Below, piece after piece: positions 28,981 through 44,605 of a stretch of DNA of 64,000 nt (the first letter of the stretch is position 1; every line of letters begins with the position of its first letter). The position numbers and the translations under genes were made by a program. The notes beneath the pieces are model-generated. The model saw nothing but the letters and a program-made list of their open reading frames with translations. It did no database searches and had not been told where the DNA came from. Location: positions 49,624-113,623 of the forward strand of contig CAWFSO010000004.1 in assembly GCA_963818525.1 (NCBI GenBank), written 5' to 3'. Origin of the DNA: an uncultured Rikenellaceae bacterium. GTDB lineage: Bacteria; Bacteroidota; Bacteroidia; Bacteroidales; VadinHA17.

Positions 28981-30483
28981 CTACCCGCAGTGGAGGTATT
29001 CCTTAACCAGCCGGGCTATCGCCTCGTTGTTGCCGTAGAGTTCCTCACTCAGGCTCTTGTCATTGTATGACTTCAGCTTTGCAGCCAGGTTGTCTATCAC
29101 ACCTGCCGGGAAGATGCCGTCCTTCTCAAAATGGTGACGCAGGCTGAGCAGGGCATCTGCCGAATCCCAGCACGAAGCGGGAAGTGACTCGAGCTTCCTG
29201 GCCTCGGCCTTCGTCTTCTCCTTGAAAATATTGTAGTTGACATATAGCCTTTCTGCCATCTCGAGGGCACCCGGCATCTCAAGACCGTGCTGTATGGCCA
29301 CGGCTATGCCTGCCATCAGCATGTAGATGTCGGCCGAGCCGTCAGGAGAACGGAGCTCCACGGTCTGCCTTGATATCTTGTCTGCCACGCCTGCCGGCTC
29401 GGCCGGATTGGCATCATGGATCATCTGCGACGCACCCAGCCACCCCAGCGGTACCCTCACAAGCACCGACCGGTTGCGGTCGCCCCAGCAGATGTTCGTG
29501 GGGGCCTCCTGGTGCGGCACCAGCCTCAGGTAAGAGGTCGGTATGGTGTTGCCGAAGGCGGTCAGCCCCTTGCTCAGATCGAGGATACCGGCGATCATTT
29601 TCCGTGCGGTGTCACTCAGTTTTCCGTTTTCAATCATTATGTTGCGGCCATCCTTCTCCAGCATCAGGTGGATATGCATCCCCGAGCCGGCCTTCCCTAC
29701 TGTAATCTTCGGCGCGAAGCTGATCTCCACACCGTACTTATAACCCAGCATCCGCAGTATCCACTTGGCAATTATTATCTGTTCAACGGCCTCATCAAGC
29801 GGCACATGCAGGAACTCAATCTCATGCTGTTCGTAGTCGTCGCCGTCCTTCGAGAAGCTCCCTACCTCAGAGTGTCCGTACTTGATATGGCACCCTGCCC
29901 GCGCACACAGCTCCAGAGCCTCCACGCGCAGATCCTCGAACTTGGCAAAAGGCTTCGACTGATGATATCCCTTCTGGTCAAAAAGAGGATAGAGCTTGTC
30001 GCTCTCCGACCTGACGTAGTATTCAAGCTCTCCCAGGGCCCTGATGGTGTAGCCCGTGGCGGCAGAAAACCTCTGTATCGCTTTGCGTAGTATATATTCC
30101 GGAGAGCTCTCCAGGGGCTTCCCTTCAGAATTGTAAAACGAACAGAGGATCTCAAGAGTCGGCGTCTGGGCGAAGGGATTGACAAAGGCGGTGCGGTACC
30201 GTGGCATGACATAGAGGTCACTGGAACCGGCCTCAATGAACGAAAAGAGGCTGGAGCCGTCAACACGCTCGCCGGCGGTGAGAATGGAAGCAAGGTGATC
30301 ACGGCTGTAGGGCACGAAATTCAGCGACTTGAGCTTGCCGTCGCCGGCAGCATACCTGAAGTTGACCATCCTGATGCCCTTGGCCTCGATGAACCTGATG
30401 ATGTCTTCGGAGGTGAACTGGTCTGCCGGCTTCCTGAGAAACTGCACAAGCTCGTTGCGGCTCATAAGTATATCATTGTTCAT
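28981..30483 (-). CDS. Glutamine synthetase-family protein (glutamate-ammonia ligase-like, ~500 aa form)
   Basis: The ORF is trimmed to the MNNDILMSRNEL start. It has a beta-grasp N-domain (IRMVNFRYAAGDGKLKSLNF) and a catalytic region with GELEYYV, HSEVGSF, GSGMHIHLML and LRLVPHQEAP. Confidence 0.75.
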   Translation of the reverse strand: MNNDILMSRNELVQFLRKPADQFTSEDIIRFIEAKGIRMVNFRYAAGDGKLKSLNFVPYSRDHLASILTAGERVDGSSLFSFIEAGSSDLYVMPRYRTAFVNPFAQTPTLEILCSFYNSEGKPLESSPEYILRKAIQRFSAATGYTIRALGELEYYVRSESDKLYPLFDQKGYHQSKPFAKFEDLRVEALELCARAGCHIKYGHSEVGSFSKDGDDYEQHEIEFLHVPLDEAVEQIIIAKWILRMLGYKYGVEISFAPKITVGKAGSGMHIHLMLEKDGRNIMIENGKLSDTARKMIAGILDLSKGLTAFGNTIPTSYLRLVPHQEAPTNICWGDRNRSVLVRVPLGWLGASQMIHDANPAEPAGVADKISRQTVELRSPDGSADIYMLMAGIAVAIQHGLEMPGALEMAERLYVNYNIFKEKTKAEARKLESLPASCWDSADALLSLRHHFEKDGIFPAGVIDNLAAKLKSYNDKSLSEELYGNNEAIARLVKEYLHCG

Positions 30484-30626
30484 TATTTGCTGCTTTTTAA
30501 TGATGGGCAAATCTAAAAATTTCCGGATACAAAAAACAACACCTTTGTCATTATTGAATTTACTATTATGCCGTCCGGGGCATGTTGTCGTTTTTTTTCT
30601 AATTTTGGTCCGCACAACGGACCCGG

Positions 30627-35113: not shown

Positions 35114-36313
35114 ATGCCAAAGATCTCAGAAAAAGCCGGGAAAATGCCGGCATCGCCGATACGCAAACTCGTTCCCTATGCCGAGGAGGCAAAGCGTAAG
35201 GGCAGAAAGGTATACCACCTGAATATCGGGCAGCCTGATATCCACACTCCCGAACTGGCACTCAAGGCACTCAGGGAAACGGATATCAAGGTGATTGAAT
35301 ATACTCACTCCGCCGGGAATGAATCATACCGCCGCAAGCTGGCAGAGAGCTACCGGAAAATCGGCGTCGATGTTGACCACACTGAGATCATCGTCACAAC
35401 CGGTGGGTCCGAGGCAGTGCTGTTTGCATTCATGTCATGCCTCGATCCGGGTGAAGAGGTGATCACCTTCGAACCATTTTACGCCAACTATAACGGCTTT
35501 GCCACCTCTGCCGGAGTAACCATCGTACCGGTGAGGTCATTTATCGAAAATGACTTCGCACTGCCTCCCATCAGTGAGATCGAAAAGAAGATCACACCGA
35601 AGACAAAAGCCATCCTTATCTGCAACCCCAACAACCCGACAGGCTCACTCTATTCGAAGGAGGAGCTGATGCAGCTTCGAGACATAGTGAAGAAGTATGA
35701 CCTGTTCCTATTCTCTGACGAAGTGTACAGGGAGTTTTGCTACGGCGCAGACCATTTCTCAGCCATGGAGCTTGAGGGGATAAGGGAGAATGTGGTGCTA
35801 CTCGACTCTGTGTCAAAACGATACAGCATGTGCGGGGTGCGCATCGGCGCCCTGATCACCCACAACAGGGAGGTGCTGGCGGCCGCTCTAAAGTTCGGCC
35901 AGGCAAGGCTATGCCCTCCGGAGCTTGGACAGATAGTTGCCGAAGCGGCTCTTGACACGCCCAAAGAGTATTTTGATGCTGTCTACAATGAGTATATAGC
36001 CCGCCGCGACTTCATGGTCGAGGCTCTTAACAATATGCCGGGCGTCTATTGCCCGATGCCCCGCGGTGCTTTCTATACGGTGGTGAAGCTGCCGATAGAC
36101 GACTCCGACAGGTTCGCGCAGTGGCTGCTTGAGGACTTCAGTTACAACAACCAGACGGTGATGGTGGCGCCCGCAACGGGGTTCTATTTCACTCCCGGCG
36201 CCGGCAAGAACGAGGTGCGTGTTGCCTATGTGCTGAAGATCGATGACCTCCGCAAGGCGATGGAAACCCTGGCCGAGGCGCTGAAGGTCTACCCGGGAAG
36301 AATTATGAATTAA
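35114..36313 (+). CDS. PLP-dependent class I/II aminotransferase (aspartate/aromatic aminotransferase-like)
   Basis: 399 aa. It has the PLP-lysine motif SVSKRYSMCGVRIG, plus NPNNPTGSLYS and DEVYREF blocks. Confidence 0.88.
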   Translation: MPKISEKAGKMPASPIRKLVPYAEEAKRKGRKVYHLNIGQPDIHTPELALKALRETDIKVIEYTHSAGNESYRRKLAESYRKIGVDVDHTEIIVTTGGSEAVLFAFMSCLDPGEEVITFEPFYANYNGFATSAGVTIVPVRSFIENDFALPPISEIEKKITPKTKAILICNPNNPTGSLYSKEELMQLRDIVKKYDLFLFSDEVYREFCYGADHFSAMELEGIRENVVLLDSVSKRYSMCGVRIGALITHNREVLAAALKFGQARLCPPELGQIVAEAALDTPKEYFDAVYNEYIARRDFMVEALNNMPGVYCPMPRGAFYTVVKLPIDDSDRFAQWLLEDFSYNNQTVMVAPATGFYFTPGAGKNEVRVAYVLKIDDLRKAMETLAEALKVYPGRIMN

Positions 36314-36330: not shown

Positions 36331-36699
36331 TTATTGGCTAGGGTCAGGATGAAGTTTCTGAGTCATTGTCTTTTTTATTGACCCTGTTATCTTTAACAAC
36401 TCTTCAAGATCTGTCATAAGTTCTTCTGCCTCAGGTTTTTCTATAAGATCAGAATCCCTCAGTAGCTTGAGCCAGAATATAGTTTCACGGCATTCTTTAT
36501 ATGATATGCTGATTTTTGACAGAAAATCTCGCTCTGATTGACCTCCGACAGCCTCTTCAATATTAGCGGCGATAGATGTACCGCTTCTCAGGATCTGACG
36601 TGACAATTCAAATTCGTTCTGATTTTTAAGTGAAAGGTACAATCTTACAATTTTCAAAGCCAGGGCATAACTCTTCTCTATTGCAATATTTTCCTTCAT
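36331..36699 (-). CDS. Four-helix-bundle protein (23S rRNA intervening-sequence protein family)
   Basis: 122 aa. Family-typical sequence is YALALKIVRLYLSLK...LSRQILRSGTSIAANIEEAVGGQSERDFLSKISISYKECRETIFWLKLL. The gene is visibly more AT-rich than its neighbours. Confidence 0.8.
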   Translation of the reverse strand: MKENIAIEKSYALALKIVRLYLSLKNQNEFELSRQILRSGTSIAANIEEAVGGQSERDFLSKISISYKECRETIFWLKLLRDSDLIEKPEAEELMTDLEELLKITGSIKKTMTQKLHPDPSQ

Positions 36700-38158: not shown

Positions 38159-39403
38159 ATGTCCACCGGATCCTTCATAGCCCGCCGCCTGATAAAGGAA
38201 CGCACTCATGGAACAGCCTTCTCACGCCCGATAAACGTGATAGCCATCATCGGCATCGCGCTCGGTCTGGCGGTGATGATCCTCGCCGTCTCCATACTGA
38301 CAGGCTTCAAGCAGCAGATACGCGATAAGGTGGCAGGCTTCGGGGCACACATCCAGGTTGTGAACTTCGATGCGAACATCTCATACGAGACAGTGCCCGT
38401 CAGTGCCTCCCAGTCGTTCGTTGAAAAGATAAGAAACCACCCGGGAATTAAAAACATCCAGGTCTTCGCCACCAAGGCAGGCATCATCAAGACCGATGAC
38501 AACATCCAGGGGGTGGTGCTCAAGGGCATTGGCAGCGATTACGACTGGAGTTTCTTCGAATCGAACATGGTGGAAGGTGAGGTGGTGACGGTATCCGATA
38601 CCGCCAGGACTGACAACGTCATCATCTCCAGCAAGGTGGCTGACATGCTCGGACTGAAGCTTGGCGACTCCTTCTCGATGTTCTTCGTACAGGATCCGCC
38701 CCGAATGCGTAAGTTTACCATCCGTGGGATCTATGAGACCAGTCTCGAGGAGTTCGACAAAACCTACCTCTTCTGCGACATAGCCCACATAAGGAGTCTG
38801 AACGGATGGGAAGACGACCAGGTCAGCGGGTTTGAGGTCTCCGTGAACGACTTCGACGACCTTGATGTCATGACCGACGTCGTGCGCGACGCCATTGGCT
38901 ACAGGGTGGCCGAGGAGGAGGAACAGCTCAAGGTCACAAACATCAGGAACAGATACCCCCAGATATTCGACTGGCTGGGGTTCCAGGACACCAACGTGAT
39001 CATCATCCTTATTCTCATGATACTGGTCGCAGGGTTCAACATGATATCGGGACTGCTTATCCTGATCCTCGAAAAGACCAACATGATCGGTGTCCTGAAA
39101 GCCATGGGCGCAGGCAACAAAGTCATCCGAAACATTTTTCTTTACCAGGCGGCATGGCTTACCGCCAAGGGGCTACTCTGGGGTAATATCATCGGGTTGG
39201 GACTGGCGATGCTGCAGCTGAAGACCGAATTGATTTCTCTCGACCCCTCCTCATACTACCTGAAAAGCGTTCCGATCAATCTTGACCCGCTCCATATCAT
39301 CCTCCTGAACGTCGGAACGATGCTAGCCATCATTCTTATGCTCCTTATACCATCTCAGCTCATTGCCCGTATCACACCCGTCAAGGCCATCCGATACAAC
39401 TGA
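38159..39403 (+). CDS. FtsX/LolE-family ABC transporter permease
   Basis: 414 aa. It has an N-terminal TM helix, a MacB-like periplasmic domain and a C-terminal FtsX domain of three TM helices (ILMILVAGFNMISGLLILILEKTNMIGVLKAMGA). Confidence 0.85.
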   Translation: MSTGSFIARRLIKERTHGTAFSRPINVIAIIGIALGLAVMILAVSILTGFKQQIRDKVAGFGAHIQVVNFDANISYETVPVSASQSFVEKIRNHPGIKNIQVFATKAGIIKTDDNIQGVVLKGIGSDYDWSFFESNMVEGEVVTVSDTARTDNVIISSKVADMLGLKLGDSFSMFFVQDPPRMRKFTIRGIYETSLEEFDKTYLFCDIAHIRSLNGWEDDQVSGFEVSVNDFDDLDVMTDVVRDAIGYRVAEEEEQLKVTNIRNRYPQIFDWLGFQDTNVIIILILMILVAGFNMISGLLILILEKTNMIGVLKAMGAGNKVIRNIFLYQAAWLTAKGLLWGNIIGLGLAMLQLKTELISLDPSSYYLKSVPINLDPLHIILLNVGTMLAIILMLLIPSQLIARITPVKAIRYN

Positions 39404-39620
39404 TCTTCTTGATGTTGCAAGCTTAATATTATTAAGTCCGGCTCGTTTTAACGTAAAAATCATTTTTAGCGGGCCATGTTTATTTTATAAACCTTCCGGC
39501 AATGTTTTCAACATATCGTTAAGCCTCCTGCATTAAAACAAGCCAGCGGATAAAGTTGCGCAAACTTTCTTCATTTGGGCACTTCCATATTTCGGCACTT
39601 CTGCTTAAATTGCAGAGACA

Positions 39621-41612
39621 ATGTCGTGCCCTATGACCAGAATTGACCCGGTAAAGAATTACGAAAAGACCAGAGAGGAGATCGGTTATGTCAGCCGTAA
39701 GGAGGCGACGCTTAATGATTATAAGCGGATAGGGTTCAAATCGGGTCTCGAGGTGCATCAGCAGCTCAGGACGAAGAGCAAGCTCTTCTGCCGCTGCCCG
39801 GCAGGGATATTCCACGGTCACAACGAATACGATGCGGAGGTTGTACGTCATATGAGGCCCACCCTCAGCGAGATGGGCATCTATGACGGCACCGCACTTA
39901 TGGAGTTCAGGACACGCAAGGAGATCACCTACCGCCTCAATAACCAGACTGCATGTACCTATGAAGTAGATGACACTCCCCCCTTCCCCATTGATCACGA
40001 AGCGCTGGAGATAGCCATCAGCATAGCCCTGGCAGCCAAAATGAACATCGTGGGCGAGGTGCACATCACCAGGAAACAGTACCTCGACGGCAGCATCCCG
40101 ACAGGCTTCCAGCGGTCTGCCATAATCAGCGTGGAGGGCGATCTGCAGCTTAAAAACAAGAAGGTACGGCTTATACAACTGAGCCTCGAGGAGGATTCGT
40201 GCCGCGAGGTCTCAGACATCGGCCATAAGAGAATATACAAGACAGACAGGCTCGGCATGCCGCTGATAGAAACGGTGACCTACCCCGATTGCCTCACACC
40301 CGACGAGCTTGCTGAAGCTGCCGAATATATCCGTTTCCTCAACCGCAGCACCGGCATGGTGCGCACCGGCATGGGAGCGGCACGCGAGGATGTGAATGTC
40401 AGCTGTGAGGGCGGAAGCAGGGTCGAGATAAAAGGGGTGGCACACATAAAGTGGATCCCCGAACTCTCTCATAACGAAGCCTTCAGGCAGTATGCCCTGC
40501 TGAATATACGTAGCAAGCTGCAGAAGATGATCGCCGATCCTTCTGCATGGTCGCTGAAAACCAAAGAGATAACGGAAAAGGACTGCCAGTTTCATTTTGC
40601 TCCGGTGCGTTCAGCCCTCGACCGCGGTGAGAAGGTCATGGCAGTGAACATTCCGGGCTGCAGGGGCATCCTCTCCCACTTCACCCAGCCGGAACATGTC
40701 TTTGCAGATGAACTGAGCGACAGGCTGAAGGTCATAGCCTGCATTGAGAAGCCCAATATGATACACTCGGAAGAGATCGGTGAAACCAACTTCAACAGCC
40801 TCTTCCCCGAGGTGGCCATCTGGCTCTCGGCAGCACCGGATGACGCACAGGTAATACTGTGGGGCCCTGAAGAGGATATCCCGACAGCCATAGAGACCAT
40901 CGACGAACGCATACGCCTGGCTCTCAACGAGGTGCCAAACGAGACACGCAAGGCCTTTGAGGACGGGACCACGATGTTCGAACGGGTCCTCCCCGGACGT
41001 GACCGCATGTATCCTGATACCGATTCCCAGCCGATACCTGTTACAACTGAGATGCTGGAGCGACTGGGACGCAACCTTCCCGTGGACATCGCTCTGCGCT
41101 TCCGCCAGATGAAGGATTGGGGTATACCTGAGGATGCATGGCACTACCTGCTCAGCAAAAACCTGGTCGGAGTGATTGAAAGGATCGGCAATGACCTGGG
41201 TTTTGACCACCGCGAGGTGGGTACAATAATAGGACACCGCTTCCGCAGCCTGGAGGGACGCGGCAGGGTGTCGAAAGGGTTCAGCTATGAGAAACTGTAC
41301 GACCTGTTCGCCTTCCTGAAAAGCGAGGAGCTGCTGCCACCCGTGGCCCGGATCATGCTTCCCGGCGTTGTCGCCTCAGCCGAACCTGACTTCAAACAGA
41401 TCCTGGCTGACACCGGGTACGCACCGGCATCCCTGGGGGAGATAAGGTCCGGCGTGAAAGAGCTCGGGAAGAGATTCGAAGAAATTTGCTACAACGGCAA
41501 CAGCGCAGCAGCAGTCGACTGGGTCATGGGACAGATTCGCATGAAAGCCATCGGTAAGCACAGGCTGGCTGAGGTACGAAAAGAGGTGTCTGATATTCTG
41601 GAGGTAAAATAA
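39621..41612 (+). CDS. gatE: Glutamyl-tRNA(Gln) amidotransferase subunit E, archaeal type
   Basis: 663 aa. The N-terminus GFKSGLEVHQQLRTKSKLFCRCPA is the GatE signature, not the GatB GLEVHVxL. Further blocks are RHMRPTLSEMG, YEVDDTPPFP and RKQYLDGSIPTGFQRSAII. It lies directly upstream of gatD. Confidence 0.85.
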   Translation: MSCPMTRIDPVKNYEKTREEIGYVSRKEATLNDYKRIGFKSGLEVHQQLRTKSKLFCRCPAGIFHGHNEYDAEVVRHMRPTLSEMGIYDGTALMEFRTRKEITYRLNNQTACTYEVDDTPPFPIDHEALEIAISIALAAKMNIVGEVHITRKQYLDGSIPTGFQRSAIISVEGDLQLKNKKVRLIQLSLEEDSCREVSDIGHKRIYKTDRLGMPLIETVTYPDCLTPDELAEAAEYIRFLNRSTGMVRTGMGAAREDVNVSCEGGSRVEIKGVAHIKWIPELSHNEAFRQYALLNIRSKLQKMIADPSAWSLKTKEITEKDCQFHFAPVRSALDRGEKVMAVNIPGCRGILSHFTQPEHVFADELSDRLKVIACIEKPNMIHSEEIGETNFNSLFPEVAIWLSAAPDDAQVILWGPEEDIPTAIETIDERIRLALNEVPNETRKAFEDGTTMFERVLPGRDRMYPDTDSQPIPVTTEMLERLGRNLPVDIALRFRQMKDWGIPEDAWHYLLSKNLVGVIERIGNDLGFDHREVGTIIGHRFRSLEGRGRVSKGFSYEKLYDLFAFLKSEELLPPVARIMLPGVVASAEPDFKQILADTGYAPASLGEIRSGVKELGKRFEEICYNGNSAAAVDWVMGQIRMKAIGKHRLAEVRKEVSDILEVK

Positions 41613-41667
41613 AGACGGCTATGGAGGTAAGAAACGAGATGTCACAAATTCCGGAGGCTAACCATAG

Positions 41668-43059
41668 ATGGCAATGACAGAAGATTTTTTTCAGGGTTAC
41701 AAGGGCGAAGCGCTGGCAGTGCTCAAAAAGTACAACGTCAGGGTATGGGGCCAGGCTGATATCGAGACTACGCGCGGCCTCTTCAAGGGTACCGTCCTGC
41801 CCAGGGCGGAGAACAATGACGACCTCCACATAGTAATTAAGATTGAGAGCGGGTACAATGTAGGCATTGACATAACCACCGTCATCAGGATGACGGAGAC
41901 AGGCTATAAGAAAGCCAACTACCAGATCCCTGAAAAAGCATTCCCCTACTCCGATGACAAGCCCACGGTGAAGCTCCTGGGCACCGGCGGCACCATCGCC
42001 TCGAGGCTCGACTACCGCACCGGTGCCGTGATACCTGCTTTTTCGCCGGGCGAGCTCTACGGCGCTGTGCCCGAGCTGGCCGACGTGTGTAACATTCACA
42101 CCGAGAAGCTCTTTGGTGTCTTCAGTGAGAATATGGGTCCTGATCAGTATATGACCCTCGCCAGAGCAATCGGAAAGGAGATAGAGGGCGGTATTGACGG
42201 CATTGTTATCGGCCATGGCACAGACACGCTGCACCATACCGCCGCCGCACTCTCATTCATGATACAGAAGCCCCCGGTGCCGATCATTCTGGTGGGTTCA
42301 CAGCGTTCATCCGACAGGCCTTCGTCAGATGCCGCACTTAACCTGATACACGCTGCAACGGCGGCAGGTCACGGTGACATCGCCGAGGTGATGGTCTGCA
42401 TGTTCGGCCCCACGAGCGATGAGTACGGCTTCCTGCACCGCGGCACAAGGGTGCGCAAGATGCACAGCTCGTACAGATCGACCTTCAGGACCATAGGCGA
42501 CATACCCATAGCTACCGTCAGGCGCGGAGAGGTGAAGCCCATGAAGCCGCATTACAACCCGCGCCGCAATGACCGCAATGTCACAATCATGCCCTACTTC
42601 AACGAGAATGTGACGATGATCTATTTTTATCCCCACATGAAGGTCGAAATGTTCCATTCGCTCATCGACATGGGGTACAAGGGCATAATTATAGTTGGGA
42701 CGGGACTGGGACATGTGAACAGGGAGCTCTATCCGGCCATTGAGCGCGCGCAGAAGGAGAATGTGGCGGTATATATGACGCTTCAGACTATCTGGGGATA
42801 TGTGCATATGTTCGTCTACGAGACCGGCCGCGACATGATGGCGAAAGGTGTCATCCCGCTCGGGAACATGTTGCCGGAGGTGGCCTGGGCGAAGCTGGGA
42901 TGGGCGCTGGGGCAGACCGATGACCTCGGGGAGGTCAGGAAGATCATGTTAACCCCGGTGGTTGATGAGATCACAGAGCGCGAGCCCTATAACGGCTACC
43001 TGGTATACCAGGGCGGCGTGCCGGAGGTGGAGGAATTCATTCGCCGGGTCCACAAATAA
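41668..43059 (+). CDS. gatD: Glutamyl-tRNA(Gln) amidotransferase subunit D, archaeal type (asparaginase-like)
   Basis: 463 aa. The N-terminal domain contains LHIVIKIESGYNVGIDI. The asparaginase core contains LLGTGGTIASRLDYRTGAV, VIGHGTDTLHHTA and VGSQRSSDRPSSDA. Confidence 0.85.
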   Translation: MAMTEDFFQGYKGEALAVLKKYNVRVWGQADIETTRGLFKGTVLPRAENNDDLHIVIKIESGYNVGIDITTVIRMTETGYKKANYQIPEKAFPYSDDKPTVKLLGTGGTIASRLDYRTGAVIPAFSPGELYGAVPELADVCNIHTEKLFGVFSENMGPDQYMTLARAIGKEIEGGIDGIVIGHGTDTLHHTAAALSFMIQKPPVPIILVGSQRSSDRPSSDAALNLIHAATAAGHGDIAEVMVCMFGPTSDEYGFLHRGTRVRKMHSSYRSTFRTIGDIPIATVRRGEVKPMKPHYNPRRNDRNVTIMPYFNENVTMIYFYPHMKVEMFHSLIDMGYKGIIIVGTGLGHVNRELYPAIERAQKENVAVYMTLQTIWGYVHMFVYETGRDMMAKGVIPLGNMLPEVAWAKLGWALGQTDDLGEVRKIMLTPVVDEITEREPYNGYLVYQGGVPEVEEFIRRVHK

Positions 43060-43189: not shown

Positions 43190-44605
43190 TTACTTAATGT
43201 TTTTATAGTGCTCGTAGCGTTCGAGAATATCCGCCACATACGCATTCACGGCGACACCCTGCTTCAGCCTGCCGTTCCTTACCACGGGATCGCCGTAGAA
43301 GACCGGGTCTGACTTGCGCTCAAGGAACAAAGCCACGTTGTTATCCCACTTGCCGGGATTGAGACCATTCTTCTCGGCCAGCTTGATGGCATCAAGCACA
43401 TGCCCGTGACCGGCGTTATAGGAAGCCAGGATAAACTTGATCCTCTCATCCGGATCCGTCACCCAGTCGTCAAACAACCTGTCGAGCATCCTGATATAAC
43501 TGATGCCTGCATGTATGTTGTTCTCAACCGACCTCGTCACGTCAAACCCGAAAAACTTGCCGGTCTCAGGCATCACCTGCATCAGACCGTATGCGCCCAC
43601 GGGCGATGTAACTGAAGGATTGAATCTCGACTCCTGGTAGATGAGCGCTGCGACAAGACGCCAGTCCCATCCAATGCTGTCAGCGTAGTTCCTTATGATA
43701 TCATCAAAGGGCGATACCTTGCCCGTATTCGTTGCGAAATATTCCGAAGAGGCCATCGTTGCCGGACGGGCACCGCTGAAGTATTTTCTCTCCAGCCGTG
43801 CATACTCCCGTGTGGTCTTGAACCCCGTGATCCAGTCGTTAAGCTCAGCGAGAAGGGCATCAGTGCCTTCCTTGCGAACGCTCCATGCTATATTCTGGGG
43901 GAAACTGACCGGGGTGTTCAGGTCAAGTTCGGGGAAGAGTGACCCGATGATGTTCGACATATAGTCGTCACAAACGGTATACTCTATCTCTCCGCGCGCC
44001 ACCTGGCGAGCAAGCTCCTCAGCATCGTAGGGTACCTCAATGATACCTATATCCATGCCCGACTCACGCTCGAGGCTGTAGAGACGCTGGGCATAGGAGG
44101 ATCCTTTCTGTACGTAGACAGTCTTTTCCGCGAGATCAAGCTGGTTCCTGACCAGTTTGCTCCCTACAGCATCTGCAGTCATCCTTGACCATCCGTTGGG
44201 CTTGCGCTGCACCAGCACCTCAGTTGTCTGCATGAGCGGCTCGGTGAAACGCATCATCTCCTTTCGGTCAGCGCTGACAGACAACCCGATGGCTACCAGG
44301 TCAGCCTCACCCTCCCGGAGATACTCAAGGCCTTCATCGATATCATTGCTGGCAATTATCTCGAGCTCAAGCTCCAGATGATCAGCAAACCTCTTAAGTA
44401 ATTCGAAATGAAAGCCCATCGGCTCTCCCTTGTAGATGAAGTAGCTCGTTTGGCTGATGTTGGTGACCGCTTTGATCTTGCCGTCGGCGAGGATTTTGTC
44501 AAGATCACGCGGCGGTGCAGCAACAGTGTAACCCACTCTGTTCCCCTTCTCACAGGAGACGACTGACAGAAAAACAATAAACAAGAACGAAATAAACTTC
44601 CTCAA
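43190..44605 (-). CDS. mltF: Membrane-bound lytic murein transglycosylase F-like (SBP_bac_3 domain + SLT domain)
   Basis: 471 aa. The N-terminal part is a solute-binding-like domain. The C-terminal SLT motif is LIYQESRFNPSVTSPVGAYGLMQVMP...YNAGHGHV. Confidence 0.82.
   Translation of the reverse strand: MRKFISFLFIVFLSVVSCEKGNRVGYTVAAPPRDLDKILADGKIKAVTNISQTSYFIYKGEPMGFHFELLKRFADHLELELEIIASNDIDEGLEYLREGEADLVAIGLSVSADRKEMMRFTEPLMQTTEVLVQRKPNGWSRMTADAVGSKLVRNQLDLAEKTVYVQKGSSYAQRLYSLERESGMDIGIIEVPYDAEELARQVARGEIEYTVCDDYMSNIIGSLFPELDLNTPVSFPQNIAWSVRKEGTDALLAELNDWITGFKTTREYARLERKYFSGARPATMASSEYFATNTGKVSPFDDIIRNYADSIGWDWRLVAALIYQESRFNPSVTSPVGAYGLMQVMPETGKFFGFDVTRSVENNIHAGISYIRMLDRLFDDWVTDPDERIKFILASYNAGHGHVLDAIKLAEKNGLNPGKWDNNVALFLERKSDPVFYGDPVVRNGRLKQGVAVNAYVADILERYEHYKNIK

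Follow-up and report, generated by a model that had tools for sequence, protein, structure and literature searches.

The closest described systems to the locus considered here are the archaeal amidotransferase GatDE, represented by the enzymes of Methanothermobacter thermautotrophicus (2D6F) and Pyrococcus abyssi (1ZQ1), and GatCAB, which carries out the same overall reaction on Glu-tRNA(Gln). GatB is a paralog of GatE; GatCAB relies on the amidase GatA as ammonia donor, whereas GatDE uses the asparaginase-type GatD and has no GatC. An AspRS-like insertion is found in GatE and not in GatB (PMC2330236). GatDE is said to be an enzyme that ‘exists exclusively in archaea’ (PMC8762117), and reviews up to 2022 take the same view. 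Here, we describe a gatE-gatD gene pair in a 64,000-nucleotide stretch of contig CAWFSO010000004.1 from an uncultured Rikenellaceae bacterium (the whole stretch is referred to below as the window). From the sequence comparisons that follow, positions 39633-43059 probably constitute a gatE-gatD operon for a working amidotransferase of Glu-tRNA(Gln), the acquisition of which would be ancient and its inheritance vertical ever since.

Identification of the gene pair

The two open reading frames (ORFs) are co-oriented with 55 nt between them; the first contains the GLEVHQQLRTKSKLFCRC motif, and the second contains LLGTGGTIASRLDYRTGAV together with GHGTDTLHHTA. An earlier note on this DNA had reported co-oriented ORFs of 663 and 463 amino acids, and its coordinates and motifs stand apart from the beginning of gatE. 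The mechanically called gatE ORF (39621-41612, + strand, 663 aa) starts at an ATG that is not kept in an alignment of the upstream regions of 17 relatives. Because the ATG at 39633 is invariant in that alignment and gatE homologs carry a 659-aa annotation, the true gatE is taken to span 39633-41612.

Profile hidden Markov models (HMMs) assign the first protein to the GatE family. It scores 380.6 bits against NCBIfam TIGR00134 (gatE_arch; cutoff 319.55) and 454.9 bits against NF003107 (cutoff 456), with positions 5-627 of the 630 in the latter model covered. On the same ORF, no GatB model exceeds 121 bits, the cutoffs being 314 or higher; the alignment to GatB reflects the shared cradle domain, and Pfam detects GatB_N in the protein. 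A GatB/GatCAB identity was considered and is ruled out by the score of the best GatB model (121 bits versus a cutoff of 338) and by the asparaginase-type gatD next door. Neither an amidase (gatA) nor a gatC gene is present within the window.

Structural comparisons lead to the same assignment. The best sequence matches in the PDB are the archaeal GatE chains 2d6f_C (295 bits) and 1zq1_C, while GatB chains reach at most 75 bits (1e-8 to 5e-20). An AlphaFold2 model of the window protein is of moderate quality, with a predicted local distance difference test (pLDDT) score of 72.6 and a predicted template modeling score of 0.66; its insertion (residues about 300-430) and its helices at the C terminus (about 470-659) are predicted with confidence. 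When this model was used as a Foldseek query, the top three matches were GatE chains (E of 4e-29 to 6e-27, template modeling scores of 0.69-0.72), and every GatB chain ranked below the GatE chains (E of about 1e-13 to 1e-17). Weak, partial matches to AspRS are consistent with an AspRS-like insertion. A check for the four GatE domains gave a mixed picture: the HMM match runs end to end, but the GAD and YqeY domains go undetected by Pfam, the tail motif is degenerate and the pLDDT is 72.6. The cradle, the AspRS-like insertion, the helical domain and the YqeY-like tail are probably all present.

The second protein is assigned to the GatD family, scoring 488.9 bits against NF003217 (cutoff 310) and 484.8 bits against TIGR02153 (cutoff 324), and Pfam finds GatD_N (PF18195, 42.9 bits) ahead of Asparaginase and Asparaginase_C. 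It also exceeds the cutoff of the type I asparaginase subfamily model TIGR00519 (365 bits versus 260.5), as is expected for any GatD. In the PDB, it matches 1zq1_A (378 bits) and 2d6f_A (365 bits), with free asparaginases at 157 bits or less. A stand-alone type I L-asparaginase is ruled out by the higher GatD equivalog scores, the GatD_N domain and the presence of gatE directly upstream. The proposal in the earlier note of a GatE-GatD pair, and not a GatB with an asparaginase, is thus borne out by the HMMs, the PDB matches and Foldseek; checked against the GatB and type I asparaginase clades, both proteins fall with GatE and GatD instead.

The catalytic residues are preserved in both subunits. 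In M. thermautotrophicus GatE, His15, Glu157 and Glu184 are Mg2+ ligands, and their mutation abolishes both the kinase and the transamidase activities (PMC2330236). These residues align with H46, E190 and E217 of the window protein (ORF numbering), and the ligands are invariant among 123 GatE sequences (38 in clade A and 85 in clade B, defined below), except that each clade has a single alignment gap at the His position. GatD employs the Thr nucleophile and the Thr-Lys-Asp triad of L-asparaginases (PMC2330236), and the corresponding T109 (TGGTIAS), T185-D186 (HGTDT) and K264 (RKMH) are invariant in 79 GatD sequences. Archaeal GatDE therefore shares with the window pair the same two subunits, the GatD_N and asparaginase core layout, the H/E/E ligands and the GatD Thr and Thr-Asp-Lys residues, and provides its best sequence and fold matches. 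It differs in the bacterial host of the window pair, in the loop at tRNA base pair 1:72 and in the insertion and tail, which lie under Pfam detection here. Archaeal GatDE has an α2β2 form, and the window pair is likewise predicted to be heterodimeric.

Distribution, inheritance and phylogeny

A scan of species-representative genomes with GatE as query found a relative in at least 130 genomes, from which 80 loci were kept, all of them from Bacteroidota. Three closed chromosomes are among the carriers, as are isolates of Marinifilum (M. breve, M. caeruleilacunae and Marinifilum sp. D714) and of Ancylomarina (A. salipaludis), and the closest relatives of the window are labelled Rikenellaceae by NCBI. 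In 77 of the 80 loci, gatD is the next gene after gatE; of the rest, two break off within gatE, and in the third (L073) gatE is followed by pgi. The order glnA-like/p432/valS/aminotransferase/p407/lolE/gatE/gatD/mltF/p691/ftsZ/ftsA is maintained over GatE identities of 96% to about 58%, divergence of the flanking proteins keeps step with that of GatE across the syntenic loci, and GatD identity across Bacteroidota is 71-99%. The pair is thus not unique to this genome, and the lolE-gatE-gatD-mltF-ftsZ order is kept in related Bacteroidota.

An intact gatE without a neighbouring gatD was seen at two loci, L073 (10001-13577, then pgi) and L090 (10001-12798, then a PCMT-type methyltransferase gene); in these two assemblies, gatD must be elsewhere or missing.

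In comparisons of the window with seven relatives, the ratio of nonsynonymous to synonymous substitution rates (dN/dS) is 0.05-0.10 for gatE and 0.013-0.095 for gatD, no higher than the valS and ftsZ values when the same pairs of genomes are compared, and the dS of both genes equals that of the flanking genes. The gatED genes are under strong purifying selection and have been inherited vertically, intact, beside the cell-division gene cluster. Their composition is ordinary for the window: third-position GC content (GC3) gives z scores of +0.49 for gatE and +1.12 for gatD, codon-usage distances are under the window mean (z of -1.15 and -0.57, respectively), and the tetranucleotide distance of gatED lies at the 44th percentile of sliding windows. 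The earlier note had judged that the base composition does not visibly differ from that of the neighbours and that the genes do not look like a recent island; composition agrees on the former, and synteny, composition and the match in dS with the flanks agree on the latter. A search of plasmids for GatE identified no bacterial plasmid, only a haloarchaeal megaplasmid.

An exhaustive search of 1.84 billion representative proteins returned 595 with E below 1e-30. Among these, a middle tier (400-540 bits, 40-54% identity) lies between the Bacteroidota proteins and typical archaeal ones (about 260-380 bits); sampled archaeal GatE sequences are about 30-38% identical to that of the window. A neighbor-joining tree of 123 full-length GatE sequences, which is unrooted, distance-based and confined to the 150 best matches, divides into clade A, in which the window and the other Bacteroidota group with the middle tier, and clade B, which takes in the remainder. 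Bootstrap values are 99% for this split and 100% for Bacteroidota monophyly. All named members of clade A are bacterial (Bacteroidales, two ‘Deltaproteobacteria’ metagenome-assembled genomes (MAGs) and candidate division CSSED10-310), whereas named members of clade B are Heimdall-, Thor- and Parvarchaeota. Ten positions and a two-residue insertion distinguish clade A from clade B. In these comparisons, the window pair belongs to a distinct bacterial branch and does not fall within the archaeal sequences sampled. The description ‘archaeal-type’ in the earlier note consequently holds at the level of the family but needs amending for the bacterial clade, given its 99% bootstrap value and ten clade-specific positions. 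Divergence measured per domain gives no clean sign that the tRNA-binding domains diverged most between the clades, as the insertion, helical and tail domains are poorly conserved within both.

The clade A sequences from outside the Bacteroidota mostly sit in bacterial surroundings too. Five such loci have bacterial gene contexts, with sigma-54 activators, RND/OEP, HPr kinase/PTS and Lnt as well as MurC/MurD/MraZ/RsmH, BamD, DnaG and RpoD. A basal clade A locus (L086) encodes archease, a four-subunit 2-oxoacid oxidoreductase and DUF835 on the one hand and a bacterial-type ATP-PckA on the other, and its host is probably bacterial. Five of the six non-Bacteroidota loci have gatE and gatD side by side in one orientation, and across clade A the operon is almost always co-oriented and often overlapping. 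GatD identity to the window protein is 58-72% in clade A and 50% for Heimdallarchaeota, the latter from the one archaeal GatD compared directly. As pairwise GatD identities run parallel to the GatE ones, the pair has moved and evolved together. Clade A and the Asgard-labelled sequences separate from other archaea in 94% of replicates, which hints at an Asgard-related donor of bacterial GatDE, with the direction of transfer tentative.

Two loci near this part of the tree deserve description. At L085 (8428-21117), a non-Bacteroidota locus at the base of the bacterial clade, murC lies directly upstream of gatE-gatD, with murD, rsmH and mraZ downstream; this cell-wall and division setting echoes the position beside ftsZ/ftsA in Bacteroidales and may be a coincidence. 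At L087 (5939-9488), from a Heimdallarchaeota MAG whose sequence, of the archaeal ones, comes nearest in score to the bacterial clade, gatD and gatE are divergently transcribed, in contrast to the co-oriented operon of bacteria; its GatE keeps the Pfam GAD and YqeY domains, and genes for ribosomal proteins S13/S4/S11 lie about 3 kb away.

Upstream elements and neighbouring genes

Two features upstream of gatE may take part in its expression (Table 1). A near-invariant block stands out in the alignment of 17 relatives, where intergenic sequence outside it mostly varies. Its perfect 17-nt palindrome, AAAGTTGCGCAAACTTT, occurs once in the window, and the 15-nt core occurs once per locus at a constant offset upstream of gatE in 22 loci; the core is absent upstream of gatE in more distant families. 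The block may serve gatED as an operator or as an element near its promoter. Closer to the gene, TAAATTGC changes little or not at all among close relatives; Marinilabiliaceae-like loci have TAAATTG, with TTTG about 20 nt before it. We take TAAATTGC to resemble the Bacteroides TTTG/TAnnTTTG promoter consensus. Together, these elements suggest that gatED would be expressed from native signals. A further AT-rich palindrome, CTTAATATTATTAAG, lies right after the lolE stop codon and is near-invariant in the 17 relatives, with variable surroundings.

Table 1. Coordinates of the gatED genes, their upstream elements and selected neighbours in the window
Feature	Position	Strand	Description
gatE	39633..41612	+	659 aa; predicted tRNA-dependent kinase/amidotransferase subunit; from HMMs, structures and catalytic residues
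gatD	41668..43059	+	463 aa; predicted glutaminase/asparaginase-type ammonia-donor subunit; from HMMs, Pfam and PDB matches
Conserved block	39548..39590	+	contains the perfect 17-nt palindrome AAAGTTGCGCAAACTTT (39552-39568); near-invariant in 17 aligned relatives
TAAATTGC	39606..39613	+	possible Bacteroidota-type -7 element; the gatE start codon follows about 20 nt downstream
CTTAATATTATTAAG	39422..39436		AT-rich palindrome
lolE	38159..39403		LolC/E-like permease, directly upstream of gatE
mltF	43190..44605	-	MltF-like transglycosylase, directly downstream of gatD
GlnA-like gene	28981..30615	-	glutamine synthetase homolog
Aminotransferase gene	35114..36313	+	pyridoxal phosphate (PLP)-dependent aminotransferase
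TIGR02436 gene	36331..36699	-	122-aa ‘four helix bundle protein’

The pair is flanked by the LolE-like permease and mltF and accompanied by Bacteroidota markers, just as the earlier note had it. The window also encodes valS, a PLP aminotransferase, ftsZ, ftsA and Der, along with a PorE-like protein of the type IX secretion system, a gliding-motility-related protein and the dcw cluster; a protein at the window edge leads to the dcw cluster of a close relative. The window DNA is bacterial and Bacteroidota-like. No tRNA or Rfam family was found in its 64 kb by ARAGORN and Rfam searches, and in an NCBIfam scan valS was the only aminoacylation gene besides gatED among the large ORFs.

Several other genes near gatED were noted in passing. 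The GlnA-like protein scores 214 bits, well under the type I cutoff of 429, and its gene and the PLP aminotransferase gene are syntenic with gatED in most Bacteroidales loci. The only compositional outlier of the window is the TIGR02436 gene (GC of 0.377, GC3 z of -4.2, codon-usage distance z of +3.7), which in relatives is present or absent at the same spot and in either orientation, and which gives the impression of a small gene that is mobile or variable. In the Marinifilum loci, an 8-kb insertion separates lolE from gatE (L076 1973-9903; also L075 and L078). It carries gdhA (NADP-glutamate dehydrogenase) and genes for a CPBP-like protein, a class D (OXA-type) beta-lactamase (307 bits versus an equivalog cutoff of 250) and a 1166-aa protein with a domain of the PEP-utilising type. 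Scanned for tRNA-pathway genes, the insertion yielded none, only gdhA, the OXA-type beta-lactamase and unrelated genes.

Proposed function, alternatives and significance

The substrate, product and physiological role of the window GatDE are those that we infer by homology. A GluRS that accepts tRNA(Gln) would make Glu-tRNA(Gln), which GatE would bind, phosphorylate at the γ-carboxyl with ATP and Mg2+, and amidate with ammonia (PMC2330236). The ammonia would be freed by GatD from Gln or Asn and reach GatE through an intramolecular tunnel, so that the end product would be Gln-tRNA(Gln) for use in translation. The enzyme would have reached an ancestor of a large environmental group of Bacteroidales long ago and become fixed beside the cell-division cluster. 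That selection has been so strong and so long-lasting speaks for an important role.

How such an enzyme might recognize its tRNA can be considered from what is established for archaea. Archaeal GatDE reads the A1-U72 pair and D-loop in tRNA(Gln) (PMC2330236). In GatE, a short, positively charged loop replaces the 3-10 turn of GatB beside tRNA base pair 1:72, and in archaea the tail domain recognizes the D-loop and contributes to the rejection of Asp-tRNA(Asn) (PMC2811023). The window loop, GMVRTGMGAARED, compared with the archaeal GKVKRGLGTIRQD, has no GatB-type insertion and retains basic residues. Three positions differ between the clades: residue 248 is Arg in 35 of 38 clade A sequences and Lys in 52 of 85 clade B sequences, residue 253 is Ala in 29 of 38 and Thr in 68 of 85, and residue 254 is Ala, Thr or Gly in clade A and Ile in 76 of the 85 in clade B. 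The tail motif of GatE is degenerate in Bacteroidota.

Several points weigh against transamidation of Glu-tRNA(Gln) by the window pair. In bacteria, tRNA(Gln) generally carries a U1-A72 pair, and with a loop that differs from that of archaea at the 1:72 pair, the specificity of the bacterial clade may have changed; the loop substitutions would also fit a retuning to U1-A72. GatE falls about 1 bit short of the NF003107 equivalog cutoff, and its insertion and tail are below detection with Pfam GAD and GatB_Yqey. Sequenced Bacteroidales have glnS and asnS and are without gatCAB; in Cytophagales, by comparison, gatCAB is present and glnS is not (PMC4206432 Table S1). Because the surveyed Bacteroidales have glnS, GlnRS is the default expectation for the order, and if that expectation holds here, GluRS would usually be discriminating and GatDE would be left without a substrate. 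Our scans covered the loci only (tRNA scans of 87 loci and a tblastn search of 1.43 Mb with E. coli GlnRS), and neither the window nor the loci inspected, about 20 kb per genome, contained glnS, gltX, gatCAB, asnS or tRNA(Gln).

Against this background, it is possible, though doubtful, that GatDE is the sole route to Gln-tRNA(Gln) in the clade, in which case an Asgard-related enzyme would have displaced GlnRS/GatCAB, been retuned from A1-U72 to U1-A72 and reached several bacterial phyla in the form of a compact gatE-gatD operon; the earlier note had likewise suggested that the pair may stand in for GlnRS and/or GatCAB in this lineage. Just as tentative is an auxiliary enzyme working beside GlnRS, either clearing Glu-tRNA(Gln) formed by a relaxed GluRS or supplying Gln-tRNA(Gln) when glutamine is scarce. 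Such a role accords with the presence of glnS and asnS and the absence of gatCAB in Bacteroides, Alistipes, Barnesiella and CF, with the co-occurrence of AsnRS, GlnRS and GatCAB in 68 bacterial genera, where redundancy is common (PMC4206432), and with the Rikenellaceae label that NCBI gives to the nearest relatives of the window, this being the family of Alistipes. It accords less well with a GatD that is more conserved than ValRS or FtsZ, since selection this strong and retention this long (dN/dS down to 0.013) are more typical of an essential gene; nor was a glnS seen, though in just the 20 kb or so inspected per genome. A bacterial clade with changed or broadened specificity, acting on Asp-tRNA(Asn), alone or additionally, in the manner of bacterial GatCAB, or on another acylated tRNA, is improbable. 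The clade-specific loop residues (R versus K at 248, A versus T at 253, A/T/G versus I at 254), the degenerate D-loop-reading tail and the lack of GatCAB in Bacteroidales (PMC4206432) would suit it, but the AspRS-like insertion domain is probably kept, according to HMM coverage, the model and the weak AspRS fold matches, and modelling suggests that this domain clashes with non-discriminating AspRS (PMC2330236). Sequenced Bacteroidales, moreover, have AsnRS (PMC4206432), and the active-site residues all match those of Glu-tRNA(Gln) amidotransferases.

That the tRNA role was lost, leaving a free asparaginase/glutaminase and a kinase-like partner in nitrogen metabolism, is very unlikely. The score of GatD over the type I asparaginase subfamily model might be read in this way, as might the GlnA-like and aminotransferase genes within 10 kb and the gdhA inserted beside gatE in Marinifilum. 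GatE, however, appears to be kept at full length, the regions that bind tRNA (insertion, helical and tail) included, the Mg2+ ligands of its kinase do not vary, and it is coupled to gatD in 77 of 80 loci; archaeal GatD, in addition, has no glutaminase activity unless Glu-tRNA(Gln) is present (PMC2330236). An assembly or binning artefact that placed archaeal DNA on a bacterial contig, or a recent island, has the textbook restriction of GatDE to archaea as its sole support, and it is refuted. Dozens of independent assemblies, those of isolates and closed chromosomes among them, show the same flanks on either side; composition, codon usage and tetranucleotides do not stand out, dS is the same as in the flanks, and the proteins fall in a bacterial clade outside any sampled archaeal group, with GatE on no bacterial plasmid. 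The chimera or contamination that the earlier note had wished to see checked is thus answered by recurrent gene order and unexceptional composition. We therefore retain a functional, anciently acquired Glu-tRNA(Gln) amidotransferase as the probable identity of the pair.

The distribution found here departs from an archaea-only one, as the host is bacterial and isolates are among the carriers. Restriction to archaea is a statement about distribution and not a biochemical criterion, and membership in the GatDE family is unaffected by it. A literature search for bacterial GatDE found no report linking the enzyme to Bacteroidota or other bacteria, whereas the NCBI and JGI pipelines already name clade A proteins GatE; the new element lies in how their evolution and function are interpreted and not in the existence of the genes, and the bacterial subfamily is undescribed in the literature searched. 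There is a parallel in SepRS/SepCysS, another ‘archaeal’ translation-related enzyme system that has been found in anaerobic, mostly uncultured bacteria. This cysteine route, reviewed in PMC8762117, belongs to a different enzyme family.

The supposed restriction of GatDE to archaea underlies arguments about its co-evolution with archaeal tRNA(Gln), about the reasons why archaea did not acquire GlnRS and about the amidotransferases of the last universal common ancestor. The culturable carriers, Marinifilum and Ancylomarina, make it testable whether GatDE works with bacterial tRNA(Gln) and GluRS and whether it coexists with GlnRS or replaces it, and the residues that govern first-base-pair specificity likewise become testable in a bacterial GatDE clade. 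If GatDE were indeed the sole route to Gln-tRNA(Gln) in these bacteria, it would no longer be an archaeal signature protein, and the argument for a co-evolutionary lock between GatDE and archaeal tRNA(Gln) would be undercut.

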